Source: a virus
Lineage: Duplodnaviria > Heunggongvirae > Uroviricota > Caudoviricetes
Length of the DNA: 64,000 nt
Direction: 5' to 3' (one strand)
Virus record (IMG/VR): IMGVR_UViG_2698536484_000026
The notes under the pieces were generated by a model. It was not told the DNA's origin, did no database searches, and worked only from the letters and a program-made list of their open reading frames with translations. Shown piece after piece: positions 4,571 to 37,576 of this stretch; positions within the stretch are counted from its first letter, which is position 1; each line of letters starts with the position of its first letter. The position numbers and the translations under genes are program-made.

Positions 4571-4685
4571 AAGAACAGTCGCCTTTCAATCATTTCCTGC
4601 CTGTATTTAATACTTTTCCGCCTGATAGGTTTAGTCAAAATGTAGCCATCGAAACGCAAATGCAACTAAACAGAAGGAGACTTAC

Positions 4686-6292: not shown

Positions 6293-6351
6293 AGCCTGCT
6301 TCTGTATATATAAATAACTACATATTAATTATTAATATACGGAAGCAGGCT
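6293..6351. repeat. Large inverted-repeat element (copy 1 of a conserved element)
   Basis: Perfect 10-bp arms AGCCTGCTTC / GAAGCAGGCT around a 39-nt AT-rich loop containing CTGTATATATAAATAA; repeated at 37413-37461. Confidence 0.5.
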
Positions 6352-8703: not shown

Positions 8704-8796
8704 CGGCTGTTAGTGCATATGCATTGACCATCTCTGCGTAAGCAATTTATGTAATTAGAAAACAACTTGTTTTGACAAATAATAAAAGGAAAACAC

Positions 8797-9381: not shown

Positions 9382-9519
9382 GACAAGGGCCAAATGGCCC
9401 TTGTGTTTCGTTGACCGAAATAGAGAGTTTGCACCTTTACGTTTAGCTTGCTCCCCTTTTATGCCACATCACAATAAAGCCAATAAGAAAACAACTTGTT
9501 TAAGCATTAGGAAAAACAC

Positions 9520-10086
9520 ATGTGCAAGAAATGCAAAGCGATAGCTGATGAACAAAACGCCTTATTCGAAGAAATGGATGCTAATGAACTGGTCAAAATG
9601 TTAGCCATTCTTCGAGGAATAGAAGACGTTTCCATATTTGAGAGAGTGGTTACAGCACTTAATTATGAGTCCGCCTTTGAAGAGCCAACTCAGATTGTAG
9701 CTTTAGCACATCATTTCGGTGTTCATTATCTTGCTGAAAAAGAGAGAGCTGATAAGTTGCAAGCGACTTTGGATATGGTGAGCGAGACTCAAGGATCTCA
9801 TGACGGTAATAAAAGTGAGACGATTATTGCCAGCAAAGATCGTGAAATTGCCGGGCTTAAATCCTCTCTAACGATGTTGATGTCTGCAATTAACCTTATG
9901 TCTTCTAAAGCAGGTTATAAAATGCCATCACTAAACAGCGACGATCCGATGGCCGTTCGCCAGCTTTTAGGTGCAATGGCCGACCAGCTCGACGACACAA
10001 AGAGTCGCCTTGAAGACATGATGCGGGAGCTCACGCATCGCCATGACTTGAATAAGCAGCCGCACAAAACGCAATACGCACTCTAA
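9520..10086 (+). CDS. Hypothetical protein
   Basis: ORF preceded by conserved AAGAAAACAACTTGTTT motif and RBS; terminator hairpin 10104-10119 after it. Confidence 0.45.
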   Translation: MCKKCKAIADEQNALFEEMDANELVKMLAILRGIEDVSIFERVVTALNYESAFEEPTQIVALAHHFGVHYLAEKERADKLQATLDMVSETQGSHDGNKSETIIASKDREIAGLKSSLTMLMSAINLMSSKAGYKMPSLNSDDPMAVRQLLGAMADQLDDTKSRLEDMMRELTHRHDLNKQPHKTQYAL

Positions 10087-10227
10087 TACTGCACCAGTCG
10101 ACAGGGGGCGAAAGCCCCCATTTTTACGCCTTAAATCTGCTGTAACGCCTATGAATGCAGCTTTTATGCCTTTTCAAGTTTGCGATAATTACACCAATCA
10201 GAAAACAAATTATTTAATGGTGTAATT

Positions 10228-13059: not shown

Positions 13060-13178
13060 GCGCTACAAATCCTTCTGCATGAATAAATAAAGGCCATAAC
13101 TTATGGCCTTAAATAAATTGTTTTCTGCCTTTTCTTATTTGTGAAAATAACCACAACTAGAAAACAACGGAGTTAAGA

Positions 13179-13820
13179 ATGTCTAGTATTTCCGAAGCAC
13201 ATATGTTCGCCGCTGGCGCTCATGGTGGCGTTGGTCAGAAAAGAAAATATACAGGTGAAGATTATATAAATCATCCGGTTGCTGTCCGAGAGATCGTTGC
13301 ATTGCATGACGGAACCGTGGAGATGCAGATCGCGGCGCTTCTGCATGATGTGGTCGAAGACACAAATGTAACCATAGAGATGGTTCGTGATCACTTCGGT
13401 GAGCGCGTAGCTGAAATGGTTCTGGCTCTGACCAACATTGCAAGGCCAGAAGACGGCAATCGAATACAGCGTTTCATCATCAATGTCCGGGAGCTGGAGC
13501 AAAATCTCAACATGCAGACGCGCATGATCAAGCTGGCTGACCTGCTGGACAATACCTCTTCTATCGTGAGTCGCGATCCTGAGTTTTCAGCTATCTACCT
13601 TGCAGAGAAAGAACTGATGCTGGACGTACTCTTTAACGGCAAAGAGATTGGTGCCAATGCTGATGTTGTCGAGTACATGGAGAGGGTAGGTATAGAACAC
13701 CCGTTGCTATTAAGCGCAATGGCGAAAGTGACAGAAGGTATTGCGCTTCTGAAACCGGTACACATCAAACGTTATGAAAAACACAAATCGCTGATCTGGA
13801 GCGCGTGGGAGGCTGCATGA
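13179..13820 (+). CDS. RelA/SpoT-type HD-domain hydrolase (putative (p)ppGpp hydrolase)
   Basis: AHGGVGQKRKYTGEDYINHPVAV...AALLHDVVEDT matches RelA/SpoT HD hydrolase domain. Confidence 0.65.
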   Translation: MSSISEAHMFAAGAHGGVGQKRKYTGEDYINHPVAVREIVALHDGTVEMQIAALLHDVVEDTNVTIEMVRDHFGERVAEMVLALTNIARPEDGNRIQRFIINVRELEQNLNMQTRMIKLADLLDNTSSIVSRDPEFSAIYLAEKELMLDVLFNGKEIGANADVVEYMERVGIEHPLLLSAMAKVTEGIALLKPVHIKRYEKHKSLIWSAWEAA

Positions 13821-14359
13821 AGGTCGAAAAAATAGATGTTCTTTCCTTTGTGCTGACGGATCTGGAACGCCTCGATCCGGTTCGAGTGATGATTGAAAAC
13901 TACGAACCTGGTAAGGGAAGAATCACCATCACCTGCTACGGAAAAGCGTGGACTGCGGCTTGGTTTGCTATGGGCGGTGATGATGTGCAGACGTTCATCA
14001 AGCGAGTTAGCAACGACTATCTAATCGACAATTTCGACCCTCAACTGCTAAGCACGGTCGACGATGACAACGATGCAAATCTGCTTTTCGTGAAGTCAGA
14101 AATCATAAAGTTACGAAGAGAGAGAGAAATCGATGCTGTACAGGCTCGCGAAATGTGGGTCGAGGCGGAAAACGCAGATGATGTCAAAGAAAGCTGCTGT
14201 TGTCTCGGCATCGGTAACAAACTGCTGAATCTATTTGGTGATGATCCGTGGTATGCCGACTGGCCAACGATACCAAACCCGAAATACCAGTATCTGGAAC
14301 GCATTGTGAACGCGGTACGTGAAGGGCTGAAAGAGTTAGACAAGTTAGAGGCATCGTAA
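13817..14359 (+). CDS. Hypothetical protein
   Basis: ATG overlaps previous stop; part of coupled gene string. Confidence 0.4.
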   Translation: MKVEKIDVLSFVLTDLERLDPVRVMIENYEPGKGRITITCYGKAWTAAWFAMGGDDVQTFIKRVSNDYLIDNFDPQLLSTVDDDNDANLLFVKSEIIKLRREREIDAVQAREMWVEAENADDVKESCCCLGIGNKLLNLFGDDPWYADWPTIPNPKYQYLERIVNAVREGLKELDKLEAS

Positions 14360-14814
14360 TGAGAGAGAAAATCAAGAACCCGGTCGTCGTATTGTATAAA
14401 CGGGAAACCAGCGATTCTTATGCGGTATCCATCACTGATGGAAGCCAGAACATGCACGATGGTCTGCTAATGGCCTCCGTATCTCCTGATGATTCGGACT
14501 ACCCTTTCGCCACTTTCGCTATGGTTGGTTACTACATGGCTGCCGAAATTGAGAAGTTGCGGGCGCAGAGAGACGCATTAGCGGCGGAGAATGCAGCCCT
14601 GAAAGAATCTGAGCGAGCATTCGATGCGATGTGTGCCGAGGAACACGGAGATAATTGGGTTAGCGAATTAACGGAGACTCCAGCAACCGATGCTTTTCTG
14701 GCTGAAGTACGTGCGCAGGGCGTGGAGATGTTTGCTGAGTGCGCATACACACTTGAACATCATGATCACGCAGTAGCTTTTGCCGCTGAGCTTCGTACAG
14801 GAGCTAAACAGTGA
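14359..14814 (+). CDS. Hypothetical protein
   Basis: Coupled ORF. Confidence 0.4.
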   Translation: MREKIKNPVVVLYKRETSDSYAVSITDGSQNMHDGLLMASVSPDDSDYPFATFAMVGYYMAAEIEKLRAQRDALAAENAALKESERAFDAMCAEEHGDNWVSELTETPATDAFLAEVRAQGVEMFAECAYTLEHHDHAVAFAAELRTGAKQ

Positions 14815-15377
14815 ATGAGATTTACTACCTGACGTTACGTGAACGTTATTCACCAAAACCAGCGCCTAAATGCTCTGTTTGTGGCGAGGAAATGTCAATA
14901 CAGCGCATATCTGGAGCACATGTTGTTTATGCCTGTTCCGGTGAGGGTGATGACGGATATTTTAAGATAGGGCGTACTTTTGCAGACGAACATTATGAAA
15001 AATCACGCGTAACAGTAGTTGATGATAGTGATCCCGATGTGATTGCACTGCTGGACGAACTGGATAAAAGACAGCAACACATCCGACGTCTTGAGCAGGA
15101 GAACGTAGAGATGGCCCTAACGCTTGAGAAACTGCGTGTTGAGCTGGAGACCGTTAAACAGCGGGAAAAGGATCTGTTTATGGAAAATGTTCGACTTAAG
15201 TCAGGTATAGCAGGTCTGATACACCTCGGTATTCGATATGCGGATGTCGAAGTCATGAAAATAGCTGGAGATGCCCAGCTTTCTACTCCCTGTACTGACA
15301 GCATCATAAACAGTATTGCATCAGGCGTTTTCACCAAAGAGGGTCAGCATGATGAGAACAGTAGAAGTTCGCGCTGA
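14811..15377 (+). CDS. Hypothetical protein with CxxC...C zinc-ribbon-like N-terminus
   Basis: CSVCGEEMS...YACSG; coupled ORF. Confidence 0.4.
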   Translation: MNEIYYLTLRERYSPKPAPKCSVCGEEMSIQRISGAHVVYACSGEGDDGYFKIGRTFADEHYEKSRVTVVDDSDPDVIALLDELDKRQQHIRRLEQENVEMALTLEKLRVELETVKQREKDLFMENVRLKSGIAGLIHLGIRYADVEVMKIAGDAQLSTPCTDSIINSIASGVFTKEGQHDENSRSSR

Positions 15378-15537
15378 AGATGTAACCCCAGGTGATGTGG
15401 TCATAACATCTAAAGGCAAACGATGTGCGGTTAAATCTTTCTGGATGAACGGTGAAAAAGTGACTCTGTTCGGTACGGATGGTTCCGAAACTGATTATGA
15501 CTACGACGAATTGCTTGTTGTTGAGAGAGCTACCTAA
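15349..15537 (+). CDS. Hypothetical small protein
   Basis: Short ORF overlapping neighbours in operon. Confidence 0.3.
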   Translation: MMRTVEVRAEDVTPGDVVITSKGKRCAVKSFWMNGEKVTLFGTDGSETDYDYDELLVVERAT

Positions 15538-16073
15538 TGACCACCTTTACCAAAGAACAGTTAATCTCCCATGCACGCGAAAGCGTTAGTTATCTGGAAG
15601 ACTTGAAAGGACGTGTTAGTAAAGAAGGAGCGGACTGCAAAGTTGTTCATGAGATGGTTGAACGAGATCTAAAACTGGCTCGAATTGCACTGACCTCACT
15701 GGAGGCAGAGCCAGTGGCGTGGCTGGTAACACTCACAAAAAACGATCAGGAATCAGTCTCTATTATTTACCGTGACTGTGCAGAGAAAGATACATGGGTT
15801 CGGATACATGAGTCACTCGGTTCTGTCGCACATGTTGCCCCGCTTTACATGGCGCAGCCAGAACCGTCGAAGGAGGAGAAAGGACGTTCAGTCATCCAGG
15901 GTAAAGCCGATAATTCACCATTGCCGCGCTACCAGGTTATCGAATTAACAATGCTGGTTAAACAATTGGTCAGCCAACTGAAAAAAGCAAAACCTGATTG
16001 CAAATTACCGGATAGGGCAATGGATTATCTTTTGCGGAACGGACTGCTAAGTGTGGAGGATGCCTTACGATGA
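15537..16073 (+). CDS. Hypothetical protein
   Basis: Coupled ORF. Confidence 0.4.
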   Translation: MTTFTKEQLISHARESVSYLEDLKGRVSKEGADCKVVHEMVERDLKLARIALTSLEAEPVAWLVTLTKNDQESVSIIYRDCAEKDTWVRIHESLGSVAHVAPLYMAQPEPSKEEKGRSVIQGKADNSPLPRYQVIELTMLVKQLVSQLKKAKPDCKLPDRAMDYLLRNGLLSVEDALR

Positions 16074-16657
16074 TTGAAATGACAAAAGAAGAACTAACAC
16101 AGGCAACAAAGGATTACGGAAAAAAGCACATCGCACATCGTATGGCGAATGTGTTACTGGCCTTGTCTGAACAAAAGCCATCTGCGTTTGTAATGAAAGA
16201 TGATTTGGCCGATCCGGCAATTGTTTCGACTCCGGCATATTTAGATATTGAGGATGCGGAACAAAAAACGATTGGGGATATTGTCGCGCTTTATGCCGAT
16301 CCCTTTCCTGTCATCGGCGACACTACTGCTCTTGTGGACGATATTTTAAACATTCTCGCGCTTCTTGAGGCTGGCGATTGGTCAGAACATTGCACTAAAA
16401 CGGAGTTAGGCGGTCGGCTTGAAAGAGAGATTACACAACTTATTGGTGATGCCCAAAATGATTTGTCACCTGAGCATCTCCCCTGCGATGTAGTCCTTGT
16501 GCCAGGGATGAGGATACACGAAGGCGTCAGAACGAAAACATTATTAACCGCATTACAGAGAAGAGCCGAACTAAGCTCGCGGATAAAGTTGATGCCATCC
16601 AAAATATTTGATGTCGTCAAATTTACGCCATCGCAACATACTGAGAGAGATAAATGA
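16070..16657 (+). CDS. Hypothetical protein
   Basis: Coupled ORF. Confidence 0.4.
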   Translation: MIEMTKEELTQATKDYGKKHIAHRMANVLLALSEQKPSAFVMKDDLADPAIVSTPAYLDIEDAEQKTIGDIVALYADPFPVIGDTTALVDDILNILALLEAGDWSEHCTKTELGGRLEREITQLIGDAQNDLSPEHLPCDVVLVPGMRIHEGVRTKTLLTALQRRAELSSRIKLMPSKIFDVVKFTPSQHTERDK

Positions 16658-17286
16658 GCACGGTAGCGAAAGATCTCACAGAAGATATTCTCAATGAAAT
16701 TATTGCTGGTGCAAATACCTCGCTTGAGCAACTTCTTGCGTTAGCACTGAGAGCCGAACGTCGAGACAGAAATCGTTTTTATGAACGATTACCAGGGAAA
16801 CGACCAGATAGATCAGATGAAGAAGGTTGCGATATAGACTACATGGAGCCTTCAGAGATTTATCAACTTGGTAAAGATGACGGCTGGAACGCTTATCACG
16901 ATGCTGTGATGAAGTTGGATGAAAAAGTTAAACCTCTTTCTCGACCGGTAGATCACGGTTTCCGCGATAACTGCGAATGCTCTAGTTGCCAGACCACGGC
17001 CCGTATTTGTTCCGAATTGACAGATAAGTCCAGCCTAATCTACGAAGTTAATGTAGGCGGTAATACATGGGTCGAATGCACAAGAGCTGCATACGTAAGA
17101 GCAAAAGACAAGGGTGAATTAACCAGAGTTGTTGCCCATCACCCAAATAATGAGCTTAAAGATCACCAGATTAGAGAACTGGTGAATGAGTTGCGGGATA
17201 TTGCGGTTCAGTACCACGGAACGCAGCAATTGCGGGAGAAAATTGCCAGAGCAGTGAACAACTCAATTAGATCAGAAAGTATGTAG
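16654..17286 (+). CDS. Hypothetical protein (Cys-containing)
   Basis: Last gene of left + strand operon; hairpin 17302-17321 downstream. Confidence 0.4.
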   Translation: MSTVAKDLTEDILNEIIAGANTSLEQLLALALRAERRDRNRFYERLPGKRPDRSDEEGCDIDYMEPSEIYQLGKDDGWNAYHDAVMKLDEKVKPLSRPVDHGFRDNCECSSCQTTARICSELTDKSSLIYEVNVGGNTWVECTRAAYVRAKDKGELTRVVAHHPNNELKDHQIRELVNELRDIAVQYHGTQQLREKIARAVNNSIRSESM

Positions 17287-17720
17287 TCAATACAATAAAA
17301 TGGCCCCATTTGGATGGGGCCGGTAACAACTAGCATTATGGGCGCTGGTTGACGTACTCAATGATCGCTTCGATGATTGCGAACATAGGCGGCACGATTT
17401 TGAAAAGTAAGTTAAGCACTATAGGCCTCACTTAGTTTTATCGCACCTAGCTGCAAATACCTTTGAGCTTGCCTTTGCAGTTGCAATATCTGTAGTCGCC
17501 AGATACTTACGGCACGATTTCGAGTTAAGGTAAGGTTTTAGAGTCACCAAAAACCTGGACTTAAATCTTCTTTGAGAACAACGATGTTTGGTAAATGGTC
17601 ATTATTACCTAGCATGACGGCTCAACGTTTCTTGATGAATCCAGTACATTCGGTTAATCTTAGCTCAGTCGCCAGATACTTATGGCTCAGGAACAGAGGC
17701 GCAAACTCTGTTTCCTTTTA

Positions 17721-17753
17721 AAAAGCCCAGCCTAGTCAACTGGGCTTTTTTAA
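17721..17753. terminator. Bidirectional rho-independent terminator
   Basis: agcccag...ctgggct stem flanked by A-run upstream and TTTTTTA downstream. Confidence 0.5.
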
Positions 17754-18046
17754 TGTCCGTTTTTAACCAAATGTACCCACAATACCGCAACATCAGTGTC
17801 TTGCGAATTAAGATAGGATTTATAGAGACTATGTGCAAGTGCATAACTTTGTGGATAACTCGTAAAGGAAAAAGTGGTTTCCGCGGACATTAGTTCAGAC
17901 AAGGAGTCTGGGAAAGTCAATGGGAAGTAAAAATTTGTTAAAAATAACGTTTGTTGGAATTGTATATATTTATGCCTTTCAATAGTTAGCATCTTATTAA
18001 CATCTTTTTTAAGAGATAGAGTTCAAAAATATATAGCTTCAACATA

Positions 18047-18066
18047 TACTGTATGCATATACAGCA
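18047..18066 (+). promoter_or_regulatory. LexA (SOS) box
   Basis: TACTGTATGCATATACAGCA fits CTGT-N8-ACAG, 17 bp upstream of UmuD'-like start. Confidence 0.6.
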
Positions 18067-18082
18067 TTAAGAGGCGAGTATT

Positions 18083-18472
18083 ATGGGCTTCCCTTCTCCT
18101 GCGGCGGATTATGCTGAGAGCCGTATTTCTCTTGATCAGCAGATAATTAGACATCCTTCAGCGACCTACTTCATGAGGGCGGCTGATAGTCATCATCGTG
18201 AGGGAATATTGCAGGGTGCATTGCTGGTGGTCGATTCCTCACTGACTCCTGTTGATGGATCTCTTCTTGTATGTGCTCTGGATGGGGAATATCGCGTAAA
18301 AAGATACCGGAAGTATCCACGTCAGCATCTGGAGGATTTAAGAACTGGTAAGAAGGAAGCATTGCCAAAGGATGATGATGGATGCACGGGCAGCAATGCC
18401 GTGTTTGGTGTGATCACTCACATTATCAACGACGCAAGAAGTGGCGAGTTTGATGATTGTCCTGTGATGTAG
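18083..18472 (+). CDS. umuD: UmuD'-like S24 peptidase-fold protein, N-terminally truncated (P1 HumD-like); no umuC partner
   Basis: GFPSPAADY...HPSATYF...DS...VK aligns to UmuD from about residue 25 onward; in-frame stop 15 nt upstream fixes the start. Confidence 0.7.
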   Translation: MGFPSPAADYAESRISLDQQIIRHPSATYFMRAADSHHREGILQGALLVVDSSLTPVDGSLLVCALDGEYRVKRYRKYPRQHLEDLRTGKKEALPKDDDGCTGSNAVFGVITHIINDARSGEFDDCPVM

Positions 18473-18483
18473 GAGAACTGTTT

Positions 18484-18510
18484 AGGTGGTGCATTGCACC
18501 ACCTTTTTAT
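18484..18510 (+). terminator. Rho-independent terminator
   Basis: Perfect 9-bp stem aggtggtgc/gcaccacct followed by TTTTAT. Confidence 0.55.
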
Positions 18511-19610
18511 CACACTGCGCGGAATGCGATTTCGCCAGGTATTACTTCACCTTGCCAATACATTTGGGCAGCAACGCGATCTGCGAGGTCACGATAAATA
18601 GCCGTAAATTCGCTATCTGGACGACTAATAACGGTTGGTGTTCCGTTATCCAGATCTTCACGAAGAGAGATATGAAGTGGCATTTGGCCTAACAACTGCG
18701 TGTTGTATTTCTCGGCCAGTTTCTGTGCGCCACCGGTGCCAAAAATTGGCTCGTGATGACCGCAGTTACTGCAAATATGCACACTCATGTTTTCGACGAT
18801 ACCTAGTACCGGCACTTCGACTTTTTCGAACATCACAATGCCTTTCTTCGCATCGATCAGCGCGATGTCTTGCGGCGTAGTTACCACAACCGCACCAGTT
18901 ACAGGAATGTTCTGCGCCAGCGTCAATTGAATATCACCAGTGCCCGGCGGCATATCGAGAACGAGATAGTCCAGATCAGGCCACAGTGTTTCCTGCAACA
19001 TCTGCATCAACGCCTTGCTGGCCATCGGTCCACGCCACACCATTGCATTGTCGTCGGTGACCAGATAACCAATAGAGTTGGTTGCCAGGCCATGAGACAT
19101 GATAGGTGCCATGTGAGTACCGTCCGGTGAGGTTGGACGTTGGTTTTCCGCGCCCAGCATGGTTGGAATTGATGGACCATAGATATCGGCATCCAAAATA
19201 CCAACTTTCGCACCTTCAGCAGCCAAAGCCAGTGCCAAGTTTACTGCTGTGGACGATTTGCCTACACCGCCCTTGCCTGAGCTTACGGCGATAATATTCT
19301 TAACACCATTAATGCCTGGTTGGTTTTTGACGCGCTTAAGCGTGGCAATGTTGTACGACAGCTTCCAGTCAATAGCCTTTGCGCCAGTGATACGGAGCAG
19401 ATCACCACTACATTGCTCTTTCAGGTCTTCAAAAGGCTTATTCCACACGAAAGGCATGATTAGTTCGACATGCAGTGTGTCATCCATCAACGCAACATGG
19501 TGTAACGCTTTAAGCGTAGTCAGGTTGTGTTTCAGGGTTGGGTGCTGAAAATTAGCCAGCGTACCGGCTACCATTGCTCTCAGGGCATCCGGCGATTTGG
19601 ACTCGCTCAT
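18510..19610 (-). CDS. apbC: Iron-sulfur cluster carrier ATPase ApbC/Mrp
   Basis: Near full-length match to enterobacterial Mrp: AVSSGKGGVGKSSTAVNLALALA, MPPGTGD, C-terminal CSNCGH. Confidence 0.9.
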   Translation of the reverse strand: MSESKSPDALRAMVAGTLANFQHPTLKHNLTTLKALHHVALMDDTLHVELIMPFVWNKPFEDLKEQCSGDLLRITGAKAIDWKLSYNIATLKRVKNQPGINGVKNIIAVSSGKGGVGKSSTAVNLALALAAEGAKVGILDADIYGPSIPTMLGAENQRPTSPDGTHMAPIMSHGLATNSIGYLVTDDNAMVWRGPMASKALMQMLQETLWPDLDYLVLDMPPGTGDIQLTLAQNIPVTGAVVVTTPQDIALIDAKKGIVMFEKVEVPVLGIVENMSVHICSNCGHHEPIFGTGGAQKLAEKYNTQLLGQMPLHISLREDLDNGTPTVISRPDSEFTAIYRDLADRVAAQMYWQGEVIPGEIAFRAV

Positions 19611-19767
19611 CCCGTCTCCTTTATTTTAATTTGCGCAATTGTCGCCTTGTAGTGTACTCCAGCTGCGACATTTAATCATTTATGAGAAATGCTGTTATCA
19701 CATGGCAGACATAAGGCCATTTTGTTACTATCAAGCCCCTTTTCACTACAAAGAAGTAATGCCTACT

Positions 19768-21801
19768 ATGACCCAAGTCGCGAAGAAAATTCTGGTGACG
19801 TGCGCGCTGCCGTACGCTAACGGCTCAATCCACCTCGGCCATATGCTGGAGCACATCCAGGCTGATGTCTGGGTTCGTTACCAGCGAATGCGCGGCCACG
19901 AGGTTAATTTCATCTGTGCCGACGATGCCCACGGTACGCCGATCATGCTGAAAGCACAGCAACTTGGTATCACACCGGAGCAGATGATTGGCGAAATGAG
20001 TCAGGAACACCAGACTGATTTCGCAGGCTTTAACATCAGCTATGACAACTATCACTCGACGCACAGCGAAGAGAACCGTCAGTTGTCTGAGCTTATCTAT
20101 ACTCGCCTGAAAGAGAACGGTTTTATTAAAAATCGCACTATCTCTCAGTTGTACGACCCGGAAAAAGGCATGTTCCTGCCGGATCGTTTTGTGAAAGGCA
20201 CCTGCCCGAAATGTAAAGCGCCAGATCAATACGGCGATAACTGTGAAGTTTGCGGCGCGACCTACAGCCCGACTGAACTGATCGAGCCGAAATCGGTGGT
20301 TTCTGGTGCTACCCCGGTAATGCGTGATTCTGAACACTTCTTCTTTGATCTGCCCTCTTTCAGCGAAATGTTGCAGGCATGGACCCGCAGCGGTGCGTTG
20401 CAGGAGCAGGTGGCAAACAAAATGCAGGAGTGGTTTGAATCTGGTCTGCAACAGTGGGATATCTCCCGCGACGCACCTTACTTCGGTTTTGAAATTCCGA
20501 ACGCGCCGGGTAAATATTTCTACGTCTGGCTGGACGCACCGATTGGCTACATGGGTTCCTTCAAGAATCTGTGCGACAAGCGCGGCGACACTACCAGCTT
20601 CGATGAATACTGGAAGAAAGACTCCACCGCCGAGCTGTACCACTTCATCGGTAAAGATATCGTTTACTTCCACAGCCTGTTCTGGCCTGCCATGCTGGAA
20701 GGCAGCAACTTCCGCAAGCCGACCAACCTGTTTGTTCACGGCTATGTGACGGTGAACGGCGCGAAGATGTCCAAGTCTCGCGGCACCTTTATTAAAGCCA
20801 GCACCTGGTTGAATCATTTTGACGCTGACAGCCTGCGTTACTACTACACTGCGAAACTCTCTTCGCGCATTGATGATATCGATCTCAACCTGGAGGATTT
20901 CGTTCAGCGTGTGAATGCCGATATCGTGAACAAAGTGGTTAACCTGGCGTCCCGTAACGCTGGCTTTATCAATAAGCGTTTTGACGGTGTGCTGGCAAGC
21001 GAGCTGGCTGACCCGCAGTTGTACAAAACCTTCACTGATGCCGCTGAAGTGATTGGTGAAGCGTGGGAAAGCCGCGAATTTGGTAAAGCTATCCGTGAAA
21101 TCATGGCACTGGCTGACCTGGCTAACCGCTATGTCGACGAGCAGGCTCCTTGGGTAGTCGCAAAACAGGAAGGTCGCGATGCTGACCTGCAGGCGATTTG
21201 CTCAATGGGCATCAACCTGTTCCGCGTGCTGATGACTTACCTGAAACCGGTACTGCCGAAACTGACAGAACGTGCGGAAGCATTCCTGAATACGGAACTG
21301 ACCTGGGATGGCATCCAGCAACCGCTGCTGGGCCATAAAGTGAATCCGTTCAAAGCACTGTATAACCGTATCGACATGAAACAGGTGGAAGCACTGGTGG
21401 AAGCGTCTAAAGAAGAAGTGAAAGCTACTGCCGCGCCAGTTACTGGCCCGCTGGCAGACGACCCGATTCAGGAAACCATCACCTTTGACGACTTTGCCAA
21501 AGTTGACCTGCGCGTGGCACTGATCGAAAACGCAGAGTTTGTTGAAGGTTCTGACAAACTGCTGCGCCTGACGCTGGATCTCGGCGGTGAAAAACGCAAT
21601 GTCTTCTCAGGCATCCGTTCTGCTTATCCAGACCCACAGGCACTGATTGGTCGTCACACCATTATGGTGGCTAACCTGGCTCCGCGTAAGATGCGCTTCG
21701 GCATCTCCGAAGGTATGGTGATGGCTGCTGGCCCCGGCGGGAAAGATATCTTCCTGTTAAGCCCGGATGCTGGTGCTAAACCTGGCCACCAGGTTAAGTA
21801 A
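19768..21801 (+). CDS. metG: Methionine--tRNA ligase
   Basis: [26 protein letters not shown] (HIGH), KMSKS, CPKC...C zinc knuckles, C-terminal tRNA-binding domain; 677 aa from ATG 19768. Confidence 0.95.
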
Positions 21802-21820
21802 TTAAGCAACCTCTGTTCGC

Positions 21821-21850
21821 AATGCCCGGCAACACGCTGGGCATTTTCAT
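21821..21850 (+). terminator. Terminator-like hairpin after metG
   Basis: atgccc...gggcat stem followed by TTTT. Confidence 0.5.
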
Positions 21851-21962
21851 ATAGACACAATCCCTCCTGATTTACACAAGCCCTAAAACAATTTGTTTTC
21901 TACCTTTTGTTGATTGAGATAATAAGCCGCATAAGAAAACAAATTGTTTCGGAGTGGTTGAA

Positions 21963-22262
21963 ATGTTGAACATTACCCAAGCCTACCAGGTGGCATTGAT
22001 CAGTTCATCTCATACATCAGAGGAAGATGCTCGCCGATTCATGATCGCAAGCAATGAGCTGGATTGGGTTTCACAAATTGATGGCGGTTGTATTGTCCAC
22101 GCCGGGTTACAGGATGATGTCTGGAAAGACGACTTGCGTCGATATGGTATATCCGAAGGCGCGATTGCTAACATTCAGAAAGTACTTGATGTAGGCTTTG
22201 ACTCTGTACATTTTGATTGTGGTGCGCCGATCGTTGAAGGGCTTGAGTGCTGGTGTTGGTAG
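21963..22262 (+). CDS. Hypothetical protein
   Basis: Preceded by conserved promoter-like element and AAGAAAACAAATTGTTT motif. Confidence 0.4.
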   Translation: MLNITQAYQVALISSSHTSEEDARRFMIASNELDWVSQIDGGCIVHAGLQDDVWKDDLRRYGISEGAIANIQKVLDVGFDSVHFDCGAPIVEGLECWCW

Positions 22263-22393
22263 AGTGTATAAGCGGATCAATGAGTTACGGAAACAGTTAA
22301 TAATGAGGAGCTTGTAATAAGCTGTATACCCTAGAAAAGCTAGACTAGGGAATAAAATGACGTGAAACTGGGCGAGACAGTAAATAATTCCGA

Positions 22394-23623
22394 ATGATAA
22401 TTGAACAAATAACCCCTTGCTCGGAGCTTGGAATGACTGATACCGCTTTTTCAAAATCGTTACAAAAAGAAGTCGATCCTGAGCAGTACTTGGCGCTAAA
22501 GAATTTAGATGACAGCTCGGTTCATGCTATTGCCCGTGACGATATCATCTGCCCCATTTGCAAAGTTGGAGGTGGTTCGTTCGTTAGAGCCACAAGGAAT
22601 GGTGGCTATCACAAGAAGGCGCATTTCAGATTTACCGGTGAAGATGGTCAAGGCCATCATCCATCATGTGATTTCTATGGAGATAGACTAACATCTGAGG
22701 TGAAGCAGCACCTTGTCTCATTCACAAAAGATCGAACAAAGTATTCGCAGGTAATACGAAAGCTGGTCTGTGCCGGCATACAGGAAGGGATATTTACTCA
22801 AGAAAAAATGTGGCAGATGAGGGAATGGTTCTTCAATAAGCGAAAGGATTCCACATTTGAAATATGGTTAGAAAGCGAGCATTTAGACTGGCTTTATTAT
22901 ATTAGTGGGTTACGTGATGCATATCTAGCATGGACAACTCCTGATATTCTACCTTTCGCGCCCATTCAGGTTACTGTGCCTGGTTTTTCTTGGAAGCGTG
23001 CGATTGACAAAGAGGTGCTAAGAGTTCACATCAAGACTCTCCAGCAATTGCGTGAAATTTCAGTCTCACATAGAGACATTGCTGTAATCTTAGAACACAT
23101 AAACAATAATCGTGACCGCACAATTCTCGATCCATCGCATTTGGAGGACGAGATAAGTAAGACCTATAAGCTTACTAGTTTTGTGATGGGCAATTACATT
23201 GAGTTTCAGACAAAAACGGTTAGCGACAGAGCATACGGGGAAGCTAAGTTTCTGGCATTTGCAGCACTTTTGTTGTTCGTGTCAGATTGGGACCTCAACA
23301 TTGCTATTGGTAAGTTTTCTAAGATTGCCAGAGTGAAGGAGGTTGATGACATGCTGGCTGGTAATTTCATTGGTCTTAATCCTTACTTCCGATACGACCT
23401 GGCTAATGCAGTGAAGAGATTGCAGGATAACTGGCCGATTGAATACCAAGAGTTGGAGCATTGGAATGTTGAGAAATCCATGCGTGACGCATATGAAAAG
23501 TGGCGTGCGACAGAGCCTGAATTCGCTCCACCCCTATTGCCAGACTTGTATATTGCCAAACATGAGAAAGAAGTCGCACAAGACGAGCAAGTCAGGCAGT
23601 GGATTAAGAACGGGGATGTTTGA
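22394..23623 (+). CDS. Hypothetical 409-aa protein with CPICK...HHPSC zinc-ribbon-like motif
   Basis: Long ORF with AT-rich upstream region; no recognised family. Confidence 0.45.
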   Translation: MIIEQITPCSELGMTDTAFSKSLQKEVDPEQYLALKNLDDSSVHAIARDDIICPICKVGGGSFVRATRNGGYHKKAHFRFTGEDGQGHHPSCDFYGDRLTSEVKQHLVSFTKDRTKYSQVIRKLVCAGIQEGIFTQEKMWQMREWFFNKRKDSTFEIWLESEHLDWLYYISGLRDAYLAWTTPDILPFAPIQVTVPGFSWKRAIDKEVLRVHIKTLQQLREISVSHRDIAVILEHINNNRDRTILDPSHLEDEISKTYKLTSFVMGNYIEFQTKTVSDRAYGEAKFLAFAALLLFVSDWDLNIAIGKFSKIARVKEVDDMLAGNFIGLNPYFRYDLANAVKRLQDNWPIEYQELEHWNVEKSMRDAYEKWRATEPEFAPPLLPDLYIAKHEKEVAQDEQVRQWIKNGDV

Positions 23624-24689
23624 GTGTAATTAGCTTAATCAATCAGTTGATAATGGCGGTCACAATTTGATTCTTTTCTATAAGAATCCGTTGATCGCCA
23701 CTACTCTTCTTCCATACCTGCAATCACACCTTTAAATATCAATAGGTTAGCGTTGTTTATACCAATAAGAAAACAACTAAATAACAGATCAACGAAACGT
23801 CAACGCTTTCACCCGATTTGGTCTAAAAAATTGACGTTTTCACACATCACTGCTTATACCCGTAACTCTACGCAGCAGACAGCGCCACAGAGTCCAATTT
23901 TCACCACAGACGACTCAACACACTACCAACAAAAACACACGCTCAAAATCGCTCCCGCTGCGTTACACAACCATATAAACAACATATTTTCAGGTATAAC
24001 AAAACAACTAAATAACACATATGCCATTCCCCAAAACAACCAACCTCTTTATGGCAGGCTACCGAAAAGACCCACCTCTTCTCCCCAGGCTACTGGACAA
24101 CCAACCTAACTTTCACAGGCAATCCGAAAACATTCATACGCGCGATACCCACGACACGCCATTCCCCAAACAGCGAAGAAACACCAGAATCACTGAAACC
24201 CCAACGAAGCCTGTAACCGCAAGGATTCTCTCAATCCCAAAAGACTCGAAGCATAACAATCACGGGAAACGCCATTACCCAATACACGAATAACTACAAA
24301 AGCCTTTCACACACTCCAGACAAACAACTCAAACACAATAACGAAAGGAATCGCCCACCTGCCATTACTCCATACACGGAGAAGAACAATCACCAAAACG
24401 ACGAGAACACCCCATAGAAGAACCACCGCAAAACGAACGAAACCACATACACCGACAGAGAAAACAACACACCCAATTCACCAACAGAAATAGTCGCCGT
24501 ATAGAACATTCTGGAAGGAGTGAGCATTAACGCCTATAGAGAGGTTGAGACAGATAAAACACAACATGTATAGCGAAGAAGCCAGGTATGTATAAGTGGG
24601 GAGGGAAGGAGGGGTGTCGCCTCCTTTTTCGTATTTATTCAACTCCTGATTTTATCCCCCCGTAACACCCCTACGGTCAGCCTTCGGTC

Positions 24690-24835
24690 CATACAGGGAA
24701 AAGGCTGCATCCCGCTACAGAAACGGCTGGGTTGCCTTCGGGGAACGGCTGGAGGTTTTCAGGGAAACGGTCGAGTTGCCTGTGTGGATTTCGGGAAAAG
24801 GCTCGATGCCGGTTCAGGAACGGTGGCGTACCGGT
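24690..24835. repeat. Iteron-like direct repeat array A (GGGAAACGGCTG-type units)
   Basis: Six degenerate copies of GG(G)AA(A)(A/C)GG(C/T)NG at about 24696, 24720, 24741, 24761, 24792, 24816. Confidence 0.45.
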
Positions 24836-25185
24836 ATAGCGAGAGGGAGAGTTGCGGCTACCCACCTGTAATGTGCGGGAAGAAGAGAGGCGCTCACGTA
24901 GGCGGACTTGCTTACCGCTGGATTCCCTCTGAATGCCCAGCTACAGCGTAATTGTGCCAGACAGCCAACGGGTCACAATCGATTTCAGTAGGTTTTCGGG
25001 GAGAGGATTATTCTGCCCACCAGCCACCTTCGGCCACTAAATCAGAATAATGTAAAAAGTATACTCGGTACTGAACCTGAAAACTCACTGCCAAAACCAT
25101 ATTCACCGGAATAAAATCCTTTTTCGCCTGTGCGTTATTGCGATAATAACACCATCAAGAAAACATGTTGTTTAAGGATTGCTTT

Positions 25186-25515
25186 ATGTTTGCAAATATC
25201 GACATCAACCAAATCAAGAAATTAACTCAAAAAGAGTTTGATCAGTTTTATGAGTTAGAAGGTTGGTCTTCCACTCTGATCAATTCAAGATGGGTGCTGG
25301 AACTGATGACTCGTGATGACGCACCTGCTTTGATAATTTGCGACATGGGTGAAGATGCTGACTTTATGGATATGAGCGAATTTTGTGTGGACACATACAA
25401 CCGCAGCCAGAAGTACTACTTCACATGCGATAGCGAAAATGACGTGATTTCTAAGGTCTATCTTCACCTCGTCCAGCATTGGGACGTTCAGGAGTTTCTT
25501 GAAGTATTCGAGTAA
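25186..25515 (+). CDS. Hypothetical protein
   Basis: Preceded by CAAGAAAACATGTTGTTTAAGG motif; terminator hairpin follows. Confidence 0.4.
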   Translation: MFANIDINQIKKLTQKEFDQFYELEGWSSTLINSRWVLELMTRDDAPALIICDMGEDADFMDMSEFCVDTYNRSQKYYFTCDSENDVISKVYLHLVQHWDVQEFLEVFE

Positions 25516-25668
25516 CCCCAACCAAAGCCAGCAATGCTGGCTTAATTTCTCTATAGCCGCAGGGAAGAACCTGCATATCGCTCATGCACCTGATCAATAT
25601 GCTTTGTAGCCGTTTTCTTACTGGTATTATTTACGCCATTGAGAAAACAAGTTGTTTACGGAGTTGTA

Positions 25669-25980
25669 ATGAAAAAATCATTGGTTCTTGGTCTGGACAA
25701 AGACCAGAAGAGAAAAGAGAAGCCTGCGCTGGTTGCTCAATTAACTTTGCTGGACATCGTTGCCAATGGAACCTCTATTCGTCTGTTCCGTGAAACAGCG
25801 GTGTCTTTCGATAAAAACACCTTTACTCGTTATGTAATGAATGTTCGTCGCCAGCGTGGAAAAGGCTGGGTGGCATTTCAAAGAATGTGGCCGGAACATC
25901 AGCTCGAACTGGCTTTGATGGAAGTTAACCGCGTGGCCCAGCAAGAGATTCAGAGAGCATCAGTGATGGCAATAGCCTGA
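25669..25980 (+). CDS. Hypothetical protein
   Basis: Preceded by GAGAAAACAAGTTGTTTACGG motif; terminator 26015-26044 follows. Confidence 0.4.
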   Translation: MKKSLVLGLDKDQKRKEKPALVAQLTLLDIVANGTSIRLFRETAVSFDKNTFTRYVMNVRRQRGKGWVAFQRMWPEHQLELALMEVNRVAQQEIQRASVMAIA

Positions 25981-26106
25981 TAATGTGCAAGTGGCAATTA
26001 GTCGACAGTACGACAGCCCCGCCATCCTTACGGGGCTTTTTTGTATTGTAAGTACATACTTACGATCATAGAATATAAAAATAACCAATACACTACGGAG
26101 AGTGAA

Positions 26107-26502
26107 ATGACCGTTAAACGCGAAAAACTGACAGTTGATGTTTACTATGCCTCTGAAACCGCCGAAGGTAAGAATGTGGCAAAAATCACCGTTGTTACGT
26201 ACAACACCGAAACTGGTGCCGAAGTCCAGGCCAGTACGATCGTGCGTAAAGGTGATGCCTCCGGCGGCGAGTACGCGACTCAATACCAGTCCATTCTCGA
26301 TGCAACTGACCCGCTGCTGCTGAAAATCGAGAACTACTTCCGCCAGGTTGATGAAGAGGTGTTTGAAACCATGATGAATATGGTTAACACCGTATTCGCC
26401 TCCAGCCTGAATACCAACACTACCTGGATTGGTCAGTACGGCCTGCGCATTACCTCTGGCATTCCTGCCGACACCTTAATCCCTGAAAGCGTATTCGCTT
26501 AA
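26107..26502 (+). CDS. Hypothetical protein
   Basis: ORF with GGAG RBS; terminator 26511-26538 follows. Confidence 0.4.
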   Translation: MTVKREKLTVDVYYASETAEGKNVAKITVVTYNTETGAEVQASTIVRKGDASGGEYATQYQSILDATDPLLLKIENYFRQVDEEVFETMMNMVNTVFASSLNTNTTWIGQYGLRITSGIPADTLIPESVFA

Positions 26503-26577
26503 TCCTCTTTAAATGGCGCGTAAACCGCGCCATTTTATTAAGCCCGATAACAATTTGTTTTCTGCCTTATCTGATTT

Positions 26578-26994
26578 GTGAAAATGATTTCACTGAAGCA
26601 ACTTAATAAGGAAACCATCATGGGACTTGATATCTATATCGAGACACAGCCTAAAAACGATCTGAATAACGAGGCATCCAGAAAGCAGGTTGCTTACTTC
26701 CGTAAGTTCAATGCGCTCGTTGGGTGGATGGAGCGCAACGTAGGTGAAGTCGAAAATTGTGAGCTTTTAGAATTAACGATGAATGACATTTGTTTTCTGA
26801 AGGCTCATTTGATGCACATAAACGAAAGTAATTGCGAAGAGTACTTGCCTACCCGGGAAGGTTTTTTCTTCGGCAGTCAGGAGTACGATGAAGGTTACTG
26901 GCATGATGTGGGGCAGTTGAAAGAGCTTGTGGAAGATCTGATTAAGAACCACGACTTTCACAATAACAGACTGACCTTCTGCGCCTGGTGGTAA
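26578..26994 (+). CDS. Hypothetical protein
   Basis: Preceded by conserved AACAATTTGTTTTCTGCC...TGTGAAAAT element. Confidence 0.4.
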   Translation: MKMISLKQLNKETIMGLDIYIETQPKNDLNNEASRKQVAYFRKFNALVGWMERNVGEVENCELLELTMNDICFLKAHLMHINESNCEEYLPTREGFFFGSQEYDEGYWHDVGQLKELVEDLIKNHDFHNNRLTFCAWW

Positions 26995-27344
26995 ATATGG
27001 GCGATTTCAAGAAACGCCTGAAGGAAAGAGCCGAGATGGTCAGAAAGCAAAACGCCTCTTCTGTCATCAGATACGCAAGGCAGTTTAGTCGCAACAACAA
27101 ATCAGTTGAGGAAAAGATCCTTAGCGTAATCGTGCGATAATTATTAAGGCCATCAGCATTGGTGGCCTTAAATGACCATCTTGTTTCCCGCAGGCTAAAA
27201 ACACCAACCTCTTACCTCCAGGCAACCGACAAACCCACCTGTTCCCGTCCGGCTACCGCAACTTTCCACTTTGACGCCTTATTCGTACAACGATAATTAA
27301 CACCAACAAGAAAACAATTTGTTATTTACGATAAGGAATTAATC

Positions 27345-29882: not shown

Positions 29883-30407
29883 TTAAAATGGAAGGATTCG
29901 TTCAACCCAATCGAAGAAAACAAGTATTTTTCTGCCGTCTTCTAACTTAAGAGTGACCTGGCAAGCATCAACGCCTCTTGACACCCCTTCAATTTCACGA
30001 CCGTCTGCCATGTAGACCCTTATAGATTGGTCGTTTTGATAAGCCTTGCGACATATCGCAAAAAAGTCACGGCGTGATGGCTGATTGTCAACATAGTCTG
30101 GATGTATTGTTAGCCTACCTTTGAACTCGCGAGCAATGCCATCGATTACACCTGATTCAATTGTGCTAATGCGCTCAAGTGGGAGTCTTATACGATTTTC
30201 TTTATCATATGGAAGCGGGCATAAATCTAGCTTATTGCGGGAAGGCATTGTCCCCTGAACGTACATGCAAAACACCTGACCGTCTTCAAGCGTGACTCTT
30301 ACAGGAATGTTGTTCTTCCGCCAGAACATAAGTATGTTTTCAGCATGTTCGTAGTCTCGCGGCCAGACTTCAGCCGGTATGCCGTAGGTGATGTCCGATG
30401 TTCTCAT
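29883..30407 (-). CDS. Hypothetical protein (last gene of three-gene AT-rich operon)
   Basis: Start overlaps stop of upstream gene by 4 nt. Confidence 0.45.
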   Translation of the reverse strand: MRTSDITYGIPAEVWPRDYEHAENILMFWRKNNIPVRVTLEDGQVFCMYVQGTMPSRNKLDLCPLPYDKENRIRLPLERISTIESGVIDGIAREFKGRLTIHPDYVDNQPSRRDFFAICRKAYQNDQSIRVYMADGREIEGVSRGVDACQVTLKLEDGRKILVFFDWVERILPF

Positions 30408-32284: not shown

Positions 32285-32563
32285 TTACGGCAACCTGCTC
32301 AGTATTTCCTCTAAATCTTTTTTTGTCATATTGGAGTTTTCATAGATGCGCATGATTTTCTCACGCGTCTTAGCGGAAACCCCAACGGCAGATGTGACTT
32401 TGTCAAATTCAGCCATAGTCATCGTCTCCAGAATGGCATTGATAACTTCAGCCTTAGACATCTTGATTTTTTTCTCTTTGAGTTTTATTTGGAATTTTCC
32501 AAGTTTTTCATTGGCCTTATCAGACAATGCCACTTGGCAATAAGTTGTTTTCTTTTCGCTCAT
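32285..32563 (-). CDS. Hypothetical small protein
   Basis: Coupled to helicase gene stop. Confidence 0.4.
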   Translation of the reverse strand: MSEKKTTYCQVALSDKANEKLGKFQIKLKEKKIKMSKAEVINAILETMTMAEFDKVTSAVGVSAKTREKIMRIYENSNMTKKDLEEILSRLP

Positions 32564-37114: not shown

Positions 37115-37381
37115 ATGACGTTAACCGATAAACAAAAGGACATCATCAAAACGCTCAATCTCGGTTATGAGCGAGGTCATCTACTTGACCTGGACGAATT
37201 GCTTGAAGTTTTGCCGTACAAGACAACCAAGCAAAGTATCCAGTTCTCAATTCGCGCTCTGATAAAAAAGGGGCTGGTGGAGAAAGGGCATACGCGCCAA
37301 CGCAGTGACAATCGCTATCACCGCCGAACTCTTGGGTTAACCACTTTAGGTCGAGCCAAAGCGAAGTTACTGGTGATGTAA
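37115..37381 (+). CDS. Small basic protein, possible winged-helix DNA-binding
   Basis: 88 aa, basic; follows GNAT-like gene. Confidence 0.35.
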   Translation: MTLTDKQKDIIKTLNLGYERGHLLDLDELLEVLPYKTTKQSIQFSIRALIKKGLVEKGHTRQRSDNRYHRRTLGLTTLGRAKAKLLVM

Positions 37382-37412
37382 TCGGTCTGGGAGCTTATTT
37401 AAAGACCTGCAT

Positions 37413-37461
37413 CTGTATATATAAATAATAAGTAACTTATTAAATATATACGGAAGCAGGC
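37413..37461. repeat. Conserved element, copy 2 (CTGTATATATAAATAA...TATACGGAAGCAGGCT)
   Basis: About 50-bp match to 6302-6351; both followed by CCAGACCT within 30 bp. Confidence 0.5.
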
Positions 37462-37576
37462 TTCGTAAGACATGCCAGACCTAATTAAACACCCCAGAAA
37501 ACAAGTTGGTTAGCAGATGCAGTAAACAAGTTGTTTTAGAGCGCATGGACGCGCTCTGTGTGTTTTAGAGGGATCT

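Follow-up and report, generated by a model that had tools for sequence, protein, structure and literature searches.

In T4-type phages, promoter and stem-loop units (PeSLs) mediate modular shuffling within hyperplastic regions (PMC2839356). In the plasmid-prophage P1, the C1 immunity regulon places one operator at many dispersed promoters, overlapping them or just downstream, and the genes under its control are silent in the lysogen. The P1 C1 operator is an asymmetric 17-mer, ATTGCTCTAATAAATTT. The repeated promoter-like element described here lies in a 64,000-nucleotide stretch of Caudoviricetes DNA (IMG/VR record IMGVR_UViG_2698536484_000026; the whole stretch is called the window below), which is an SSU5-like phage-plasmid. 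By analogy it is familiar in kind, since it would work like the P1 C1 multi-operator regulon and appears to be built like the T4 PeSL cassettes. SSU5-like phage-plasmids are common in Enterobacteriaceae, and such elements can bear antibiotic-resistance genes (phage-plasmid papers). No description of their lysogeny control was found in the searchable literature, and for this widespread and clinically relevant plasmid group neither the operator nor its regulon or binder appears to have been described.

In the initial annotation, the element was reported as a conserved 40-bp sequence in three near-identical copies, each following a terminator hairpin and preceding a gene. The three copies are present, with coordinates correct within a few bases, and each indeed follows a GC-rich hairpin and precedes an ATG (table 1). 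The first one, noted from 13121, actually starts near 13108, the left arm of its palindrome being degenerate (AAATAA vs AAACAA). Near identity holds for a core of 14-19 identical nt but not for the full 41 nt, over which the pairwise values are 32/41, 34/41 and 31/41 (76-83%). The 14-mer TTGTTTTCTGCCTT is exact in two of the copies and carries one mismatch in the other; by our own arithmetic, an exact occurrence is expected ~5e-4 times in 128 kb (both strands). The window contains at least 11 related modules, among which the three copies form a subfamily, and the repeat as noted is smaller than the real one.

The order of a module is terminator hairpin, inverted palindrome, TTTnnnGCC, 13 nt, extended -10, 10-11 nt, palindrome AGAAAACAAnTTGTTT, Shine-Dalgarno sequence (SD) and ATG. 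Among the modules of the window, the inverted upstream palindrome is found in the three reported copies only. The -10 hexamers are GATAAT, GAAAAT or TATTAT, mostly with TG in front (the TGnGATAAT form), and the 10-11 nt between the -10 and the palindrome are like aACaCCAAcA. The palindrome, as delimited by a repeat search and pattern scans, covers 19 bp, AGAAAACAA-N-TTGTTTTCT. In the window, 16 copies of its half-site AGAAAACAA were counted vs 1.2 expected; its 13-bp core, at no more than two mismatches, is present 17 times vs 6.1 expected, a count reached by none of 100 shuffles. The promoter core TT[TG]NNN[GAC]CC-N13-[GTC]A[TA][AT]AT is present eight times on the plus strand and never on the minus strand (0.83 expected). 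A chance repeat is ruled out by these counts.

The promoter-like character of the copies stands as regards the extended -10, the orientation and the conservation; the -35 assignment does not, and the shared operator and the wider family had been missed. A GATAAT/GAAAAT hexamer with TG at -15/-14 is found in seven of the eight cores, and hexamer and spacing are kept across genera while the flanks diverge. The -10 is GAAAAT in copies 1 and 3 and GATAAT in copy 2, the TG triplets of the three being TGT, TGA and TGT, and GATAAT prevails in 25 of 38 family contexts. Every copy faces its downstream gene, 31-40 nt ahead of the ATG. The TTGTTT that had been taken for the -35 box lies 19 nt from the -10 (usual 16-18) and scores 3/6, the same as TTTTCT at 16 nt. 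It is the right arm of the conserved palindrome AAACAAnTTGTTTTCT, which recurs ~10 nt downstream of the -10 in at least eight further promoters. The most informative feature is the shared operator rather than the promoter hexamers.

At roughly -30 to -28, a triplet GCC (or ACC) was additionally observed in every core and in all relatives (e.g., 13127-13129, 21902-21904 and 26564-26566); with ACC and CCC variants counted it is present in 8/8 cores, and it is outside the sigma-70 consensus. A sigma-28 promoter, whose -10 the CGATAA core resembles, was rejected by eye on account of the copies with GAAAAT and of nothing like TAAAGTTT at the right distance. A T4 MotA box at -30 was also rejected (TGCC differs from TGCTT) and is retained solely as an analogy for an activator.

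Similarly to PeSLs, which are conserved over ~60-100 bp and repeated many times (PMC2839356, PMC4122927), the modules join a promoter to a terminator-type stem-loop, and this composite of hairpin and promoter in one intergenic unit is present in all three reported copies. Both kinds of unit recur within hyperplastic stretches immediately before small genes without known function, and mark points at which close relatives differ by an insertion, deletion or replacement. However, PeSLs have a strong consensus sigma-70 promoter without an operator and belong to virulent T4-like myoviruses, whereas here the -35 is weak, the palindromic operator is the most conserved part and the element is a temperate siphovirus phage-plasmid. 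Unlike the P1 C1 operator, the site is a palindrome of 16-19 bp; no C1 homolog was identified, and the C1 consensus has no match in the window at up to three mismatches.

The palindrome and the layout are unchanged in the Escherichia phages Cyrano, CMS-2020a (two records) and PhiR41_1, in Salmonella phage SSU5, in the Klebsiella phage-plasmids pJN2-26 and p4727, and in Nissabacter-type and Enterobacter kobei contigs, in which the flanking proteins share only 36-57% identity with their counterparts in the window. Across eight genomes, 37 of 38 distinct contexts have the operator 10-11 nt from the -10, and its distance to the SD and the ATG is variable. The invariant palindrome and the fixed spacing are therefore an indication of selection on the site itself and not only of shared ancestry. 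The 51-bp spacing between the upstream and downstream operators of the reported copies also occurs in SSU5; in several relatives the upstream palindrome is immediately adjacent to a conserved hairpin, AAGGCCAC..GTGGCCTT, and the hairpin-palindrome junction of the copy 1 type is kept in SSU5, Klebsiella and a P1-like plasmid. In the whole genome of Cyrano, sites are also located before terS, parA, a helicase gene, CYRAN_58 and nrdB.

Among 5,426 complete E. coli genomes, 248 matched a 31-nt leader-plus-operator probe, at 1,093 sites in total, each of them on a plasmid and none chromosomal, at a BLAST sensitivity of ~19 or more exact bases of one 31-nt variant, which shorter or more diverged host sites would escape. 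Because all matches are on plasmids, the operator is regarded as element-encoded; a host chromosomal regulon site is not supported. In PLSDB, 637 plasmids carry the 13.1-kb module, the majority being non-mobilizable Enterobacteriaceae replicons of ~100-117 kb. None of the 13-mers of the palindrome is present in the searchable literature.

Expression was taken from the published RNA-seq of E. coli LF82, a Cyrano lysogen, in LB (PMC9928086, Table S1; median background 9.8, floor 5.0). The first genes behind the modules stand at 7.0 (CYRAN_85), 7.1 (CYRAN_87), 7.8 (CYRAN_90), 6.3 (CYRAN_93), 7.5 (CYRAN_101), 12.8 (CYRAN_105), 12.2 (CYRAN_106), 5.7 (CYRAN_108), 6.7 (CYRAN_110) and 25.5 (CYRAN_111), that is, all but the last within 5.7-12.8. 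In the plasmid-prophage state the module promoters are thus silent, as expected from a repressed early regulon. Inside macrophages the same genes rise by ~2-3.5 log2 units, together with the LexA-box-controlled umuD-like gene, and ciprofloxacin induces Cyrano. No LexA box (CTGT-N8-ACAG) is found in the modules, and SOS induction must therefore reach their promoters indirectly. The sole AT-rich consensus LexA box, CTGTATGCATATACAG at 18049-18064, is directly before the umuD/humD-like S24 peptidase gene (18083-18472), the Cyrano ortholog of which is strongly expressed and higher still in macrophages. As a separate observation, two reported operons have second genes, CYRAN_102 and CYRAN_109 (window ~22394-23623 and just after 26994), that are ~6-fold above background with the first genes at the floor, a pattern that calls for internal promoters or stable RNAs beyond the silent module promoters.

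Some mosaic junctions between close relatives also map to the modules. Between 1 and 40 kb, 30 distinct homology breakpoints separate the window from four close relatives. Three of them (10169, 13151 and 25161) fall inside modules, which make up 1.7% of the sequence (p = 0.013 vs random positions). The breakpoint at 10169 is within the module 10162-10218. At 25161, the window follows the left junction of PhiR41_1 up to the operator and the right junction from the operator on; PhiR41_1 has an extra small open reading frame between two module copies, and the module 25120-25176 is the crossover site of this cassette insertion/deletion (indel). A hairpin-palindrome-promoter unit is also present in the P1-like (SJ46-type) plasmid p14146 (NZ_CP064673.1, 1505-1562), next to an S24-peptidase region; its -10 is degenerate and no gene follows it on that strand. 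Its presence there speaks for a transfer of the cassette between phage-plasmid lineages. The cassette architecture may explain the swapping of small genes in this group and, occasionally, in P1-like plasmids.

The anatomy, the conservation, the restriction to plasmids, the silence in a lysogen and one junction example are thus shown; promoter activity, protein binding and the direction of regulation we infer as follows. The modules would be early promoters of the sigma-70 type in which the -35 is weak and the -10 extended. In the lysogen, a DNA-binding protein encoded by the element would repress them from the shared palindromic operator; this explanation is held with moderate confidence. Host sigma-70 RNA polymerase would probably use the module promoters for early genes, each promoter being part of a compact cassette of terminator hairpin, operator and promoter, then leader. 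The operator, AGAAAACAA-N-TTGTTT(TCT), is common to at least 11 of these putative promoters in the window and to more in related genomes. Most members have one operator 10-11 nt past the -10, at about +4 to +20, and a protein bound to it would block initiation or escape. The second, inverted operator over the -35 region, with its centre 51 bp away, would allow double occupancy, and the reported promoters would thus be doubly guarded; in copy 1 the distance of 51 bp is counted to a downstream half-site, and copy 3 has no recognisable operator downstream of the -10. The arrangement is like that of lac O1/O3, with the main site centred near +13 and the second 51 bp upstream in the reported copies. 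In contrast to lac, no sequence relation to the lac operators exists and no LacI-family protein was found, and it is the geometry only that would suggest cooperative binding or looping. In the plasmid-prophage state, the repressor would occupy its sites and keep the dispersed early and accessory operons silent. Because ~60-100 bp of shared sequence precede small variable genes, the cassettes would also act as homologous crossover points for cassette gain and loss. One invariant operator at about a dozen or more promoters offers a concrete handle on lysogeny control and defines a probable early regulon; it can serve as a bait sequence for fishing out the repressor, and it predicts which accessory genes stay silent in carriers.

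Several observations weigh against this explanation. The -35 is poor, the best match in the reported copies being 3/6 at any spacing of 15-19 nt, and a generic sigma-70 promoter scan called none of these sites because of the weak -35. The site is asymmetric, with AGA invariant on one side only and most sites keeping one orientation relative to the gene, features for which a simple symmetric dimer would have no need. In Cyrano, the sites before the helicase and nrdB genes have no evident upstream promoter, and the parA operon carries the site yet is expressed in the lysogen at ~5x background. The CYRAN_45-type helix-turn-helix (HTH) "putative repressor", expressed in the lysogen (96) from a gene outside the window, is weakened as the binder by its own control region, which has GGTAAG/CTTACC repeats and no palindrome, and the FljA-family protein encoded beside the modules is weakened as a binder of double-stranded DNA by its predicted Sm-like fold. 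The enrichment of breakpoints in the modules is modest and stands at only p = 0.06 under an intergenic-only null. No transcription start site or regulatory study of SSU5-like elements was found in the searchable literature.

The site could alternatively be read in RNA, AGAAAACAA-N-UUGUUU being an A-rich/U-rich leader target bound by the FljA-family tandem-Sm protein or by host Hfq, with the mRNAs translationally repressed or destabilised. The precedent is Salmonella FljA, which is reported to block the translation of fliC mRNA, acting post-transcriptionally and on one host mRNA (PMC2652032). As in the fliC 5' untranslated region, most sites are in leaders (9 of the 12 good window sites in sense orientation, 12-40 nt before the ATG), and the FljA-family gene is a core gene of the group which adjoins the module region. 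Its product is modelled as a tandem Sm/Hfq-like fold without an HTH, a prediction that fits the long-standing observation that FljA acts on mRNA. However, the gene is barely expressed in the lysogen (18 vs background 9.8) and the target mRNAs are at the floor, which points to transcriptional silence. Some Cyrano sites do lie between cistrons without an evident promoter, and the left arm AGAAAACAA, including the unpaired AGA without a symmetric partner, is more conserved than the right one; on the other hand, dyad symmetry is conserved, for which a single-stranded RNA motif has no need, and the spacing is fixed to the -10 and variable to the SD and ATG. Moreover, in the reported copies, and in their orthologs from all genera, the inverted site lies upstream of the -10, outside the transcript of their own promoter. 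In contrast to fliC, the site is a DNA palindrome which also stands upstream of promoters, and its RNA hairpin is negligible (0 to -1.8 kcal/mol), the leaders showing no excess of structure over shuffled sequence. Changes in the arms affect one side and disrupt the pairing (e.g., the recurrent TTATTT removes the sole G-C pair), no compensatory changes between the arms were seen in the 38 contexts, and no Rfam 15 covariance model matched at the gathering threshold in 8000-38000. A structured RNA element or known RNA family is ruled out by the weak hairpin, the lack of covariation and the lack of an Rfam match. This is evidence for an operator that would act as a DNA site tied to the promoter and not as an RNA structure, and RNA-level control seems unlikely. 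Its extended form, in which the FljA-family Sm/Hfq-like protein would be a translational repressor reading the leader motif on a dozen or more early mRNAs, as a post-transcriptional immunity regulon of which Salmonella FljA/fliC would be a domesticated single-target offshoot, appears somewhat more doubtful still.

Activator-dependent promoters would show the same silence in the lysogen as repressed ones, and this too counts against the repressor. The modules would then be middle promoters, with TTTnnnGCC near -30 and/or the palindrome near -38 as the site of a phage activator that is absent in the lysogen, like the T4 MotA boxes which replace the -35. The poor -35 and the GCC-type triplet of the cores agree with an activator, as do the very poor -10 of the member upstream of terS and the fact that no lysogen-expressed repressor could be tied to the site. 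Most palindromes, however, cover roughly +4 to +20, where repressors rather than activators typically bind, and one core (4614) has no palindrome. Extended -10 promoters need neither a -35 nor an activator. No MotA/AsiA-like protein was noticed, though no systematic search for one was made. Activation is considered improbable. In a last explanation, the repeats would be mainly recombination linkers or relics of cassette duplication, the palindrome having no specific regulatory role. The breakpoints and the indel junction inside modules and the copy of the P1-like plasmid with its degenerate -10 are in line with this, but a palindrome that is invariant across genera amid diverging module sequence, at a fixed distance from the -10, speaks against it, and it is thought very improbable.

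Table 1. Positions of the reported copies, the other modules and the candidate binding proteins in the window.
Feature	Position	Strand	Sequence	Remark
Copy 1, 41 nt	13108..13148		CTTAAATAAATTGTTTTCTGCCTTTTCTTATTTGTGAAAAT	
Copy 2, 41 nt	21883..21923		CTAAAACAATTTGTTTTCTACCTTTTGTTGATTGAGATAAT	
Copy 3, 41 nt	26545..26585		CGATAACAATTTGTTTTCTGCCTTATCTGATTTGTGAAAAT	
GC-rich terminator-like hairpin, copy 1	13090..13110	+	AAGGCCATAACTTATGGCCTT	abuts the upstream palindrome
Upstream operator, inverted, copy 1	13108..13126	-	AGAAAACAATTTATTTAAG (- strand)	overlaps the -35 region
Promoter core, copy 1	13121..13148	+	TTTTCT-GCC-N13-GAAAAT	extended -10 TGTGAAAAT at 13140-13148
Downstream half-site, copy 1	13159..13167	+	AGAAAACAA	10 nt after the -10; SD GGAG in place of the right arm
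HD-domain phosphohydrolase gene behind copy 1	13179..13820	+		Pfam HD_4, E = 1e-16
Terminator hairpin upstream of copy 2	21822..21844	+	ATGCCCGGC-AACAC-GCTGGGCAT	then TTTTCA
Upstream operator, inverted, copy 2	21883..21901	-	AGAAAACAAATTGTTTTAG (- strand)	centre near -38
Promoter core, copy 2	21896..21923	+	TTTTCT-ACC-N13-GATAAT	extended -10 TGAGATAAT at 21915-21923
Downstream operator, copy 2	21934..21952	+	AGAAAACAAATTGTTTCGG	10 nt past the -10; 51 bp centre-to-centre from the upstream operator
DUF5983-C gene behind copy 2	21963..22262	+		
Terminator hairpin upstream of copy 3	26512..26534	+	AATGGCGCG-TAAAC-CGCGCCATT	then TTATT
Upstream operator, inverted, copy 3	26545..26563	-	AGAAAACAAATTGTTATCG (- strand)	
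Promoter core, copy 3	26558..26585	+	TTTTCT-GCC-N13-GAAAAT	extended -10 TGTGAAAAT at 26577-26585
phrog_7971 gene behind copy 3, function not known	26620..26994	+		
Promoter core without palindrome	4614..4641	+	TTTTCCGCC-N13-CAAAAT	before gene 4686
Module with canonical -35	8724..8775	+	TTGACC, 17-nt spacer, TTATGT, operator AGAAAACAACTTGTTTTGA (8757-8775)	before TerB/TciA-like gene
Operator	9486..9504	+	AGAAAACAACTTGTTTAAG	in leader of gene 9520-10086
Core and operator	10162..10218	+	TTTTATGCC..TGCGATAAT, operator AGAAAACAAATTATTT	before DUF4942 gene (10228)
Core and operator	25120..25176	+	TTTTTCGCC..TGCGATAAT, operator AGAAAACATGTTGTTT	before gene 25186
Core and operator	25603..25660	+	TTTGTAGCC..TGGTATTAT, operator AGAAAACAAGTTGTTT	before gene 25669
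Core and operator	27270..27327	+	TTTGACGCC..GATAAT, operator AGAAAACAATTTGTTA	before gene 27345
Two tandem operators, 25 bp apart	37496..37539	+		then GC hairpin and T-run; upstream of terS (37577)
FljA-family protein	29883..30407	-		Pfam Flag1_repress PF03614, E = 5e-81; adjoins module region
92-aa core protein, candidate operator-binding repressor	32285..32563	-		ribbon-helix-helix-like sequence pattern
88-aa protein, second candidate binder	37115..37381	+		weak winged-helix (Sta1/Lrs14) similarity; directly upstream of terS double operator
Leader oligonucleotide (RNA)			AGAAAACAAGUUGUUU	

For the repressor that the favoured explanation calls for, the 92-aa core protein may be the missing component, judging by its sequence pattern. 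Its N-terminus reads TTYCQVALS followed by two putative helices, and the putative recognition strand CQV.L..AN is invariant in orthologs which are 36-38% identical overall. The ortholog CYRAN_117 is expressed in the lysogen (114), and an operator-like site is placed at codons 4-9 of the 92-aa gene (32535-32553). The monomer structure model is poor (pLDDT 64), and the fold was not confirmed by Pfam, NCBIfam or PDB profile searches. The 88-aa protein is silent in the lysogen. Co-variation is useless for choosing between binders because the operator is invariant in all relatives examined.

Two further sites lie in or near genes of candidate proteins. The control region of CYRAN_45 (Cyrano 42575-42825) includes, among its GGTAAG/CTTACC repeats, the palindrome GGTAAGTGCTTACC, which suggests a second, separate repressor-operator pair in these elements. 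On the strand opposite to the FljA-family gene, within the 3' end of that gene, the 19-mer AGAAAACAAGTATTTTTCT is found at 29915-29933; it has two mismatches to the full palindrome (chance expectation ~3e-6 per window, our own estimate) and is followed by the promoter-core-like GCCGTCTTC. It may be the relic of an antisense promoter or may serve autoregulation.

Over 12-27 kb, the window is 96.6% identical to CMS-2020a, 95.8% to Cyrano and 94.8% to PhiR41_1; SSU5 is a more distant relative, with ~85% over parts of this region. An early and accessory region of ~1-37 kb is followed by the virion genes from terS (37577) on. The modules cluster at 8.7-27.3 kb, where the close relatives cover just 64-74% of the sequence, and the genes downstream of them are mostly without known function. 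A full-length methionyl-tRNA synthetase gene is carried at 19639-21801, with the terminator that precedes copy 2 directly after it.

Iteron-like tandem repeats of 30-31 nt (consensus ~AAAACAACCAACCTCTT....CAGGCTACCGAAAA) form three units at 24033-24129 and two at 27197-27262, both arrays lying in non-coding DNA between modules. Just before the second array comes an indel junction of Cyrano (27143-27176). An AT-rich palindrome of 57 bp with GC end clamps (CCTGCTTCTGTATATAT...ATATATACGGAAGCAGG) is present in two copies, 81% identical, at 6295-6351 and 37406-37462, the one after a Dam-like methylase gene and the other a short way ahead of the terS double operator. Bidirectional termination is a possible role, as is a part in replication or packaging. 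A GC hairpin, AGAGCGCATGGACGCGCTCT, whose tail is T-rich, separates terS from the tandem operators (37539-37566); a terminator within the leader of the late operon would suggest late control of the antitermination type. Finally, the tail-fibre gene at 62004-63647 contains six copies of a 120-nt (40-aa) repeat unit with 67-78% identity.

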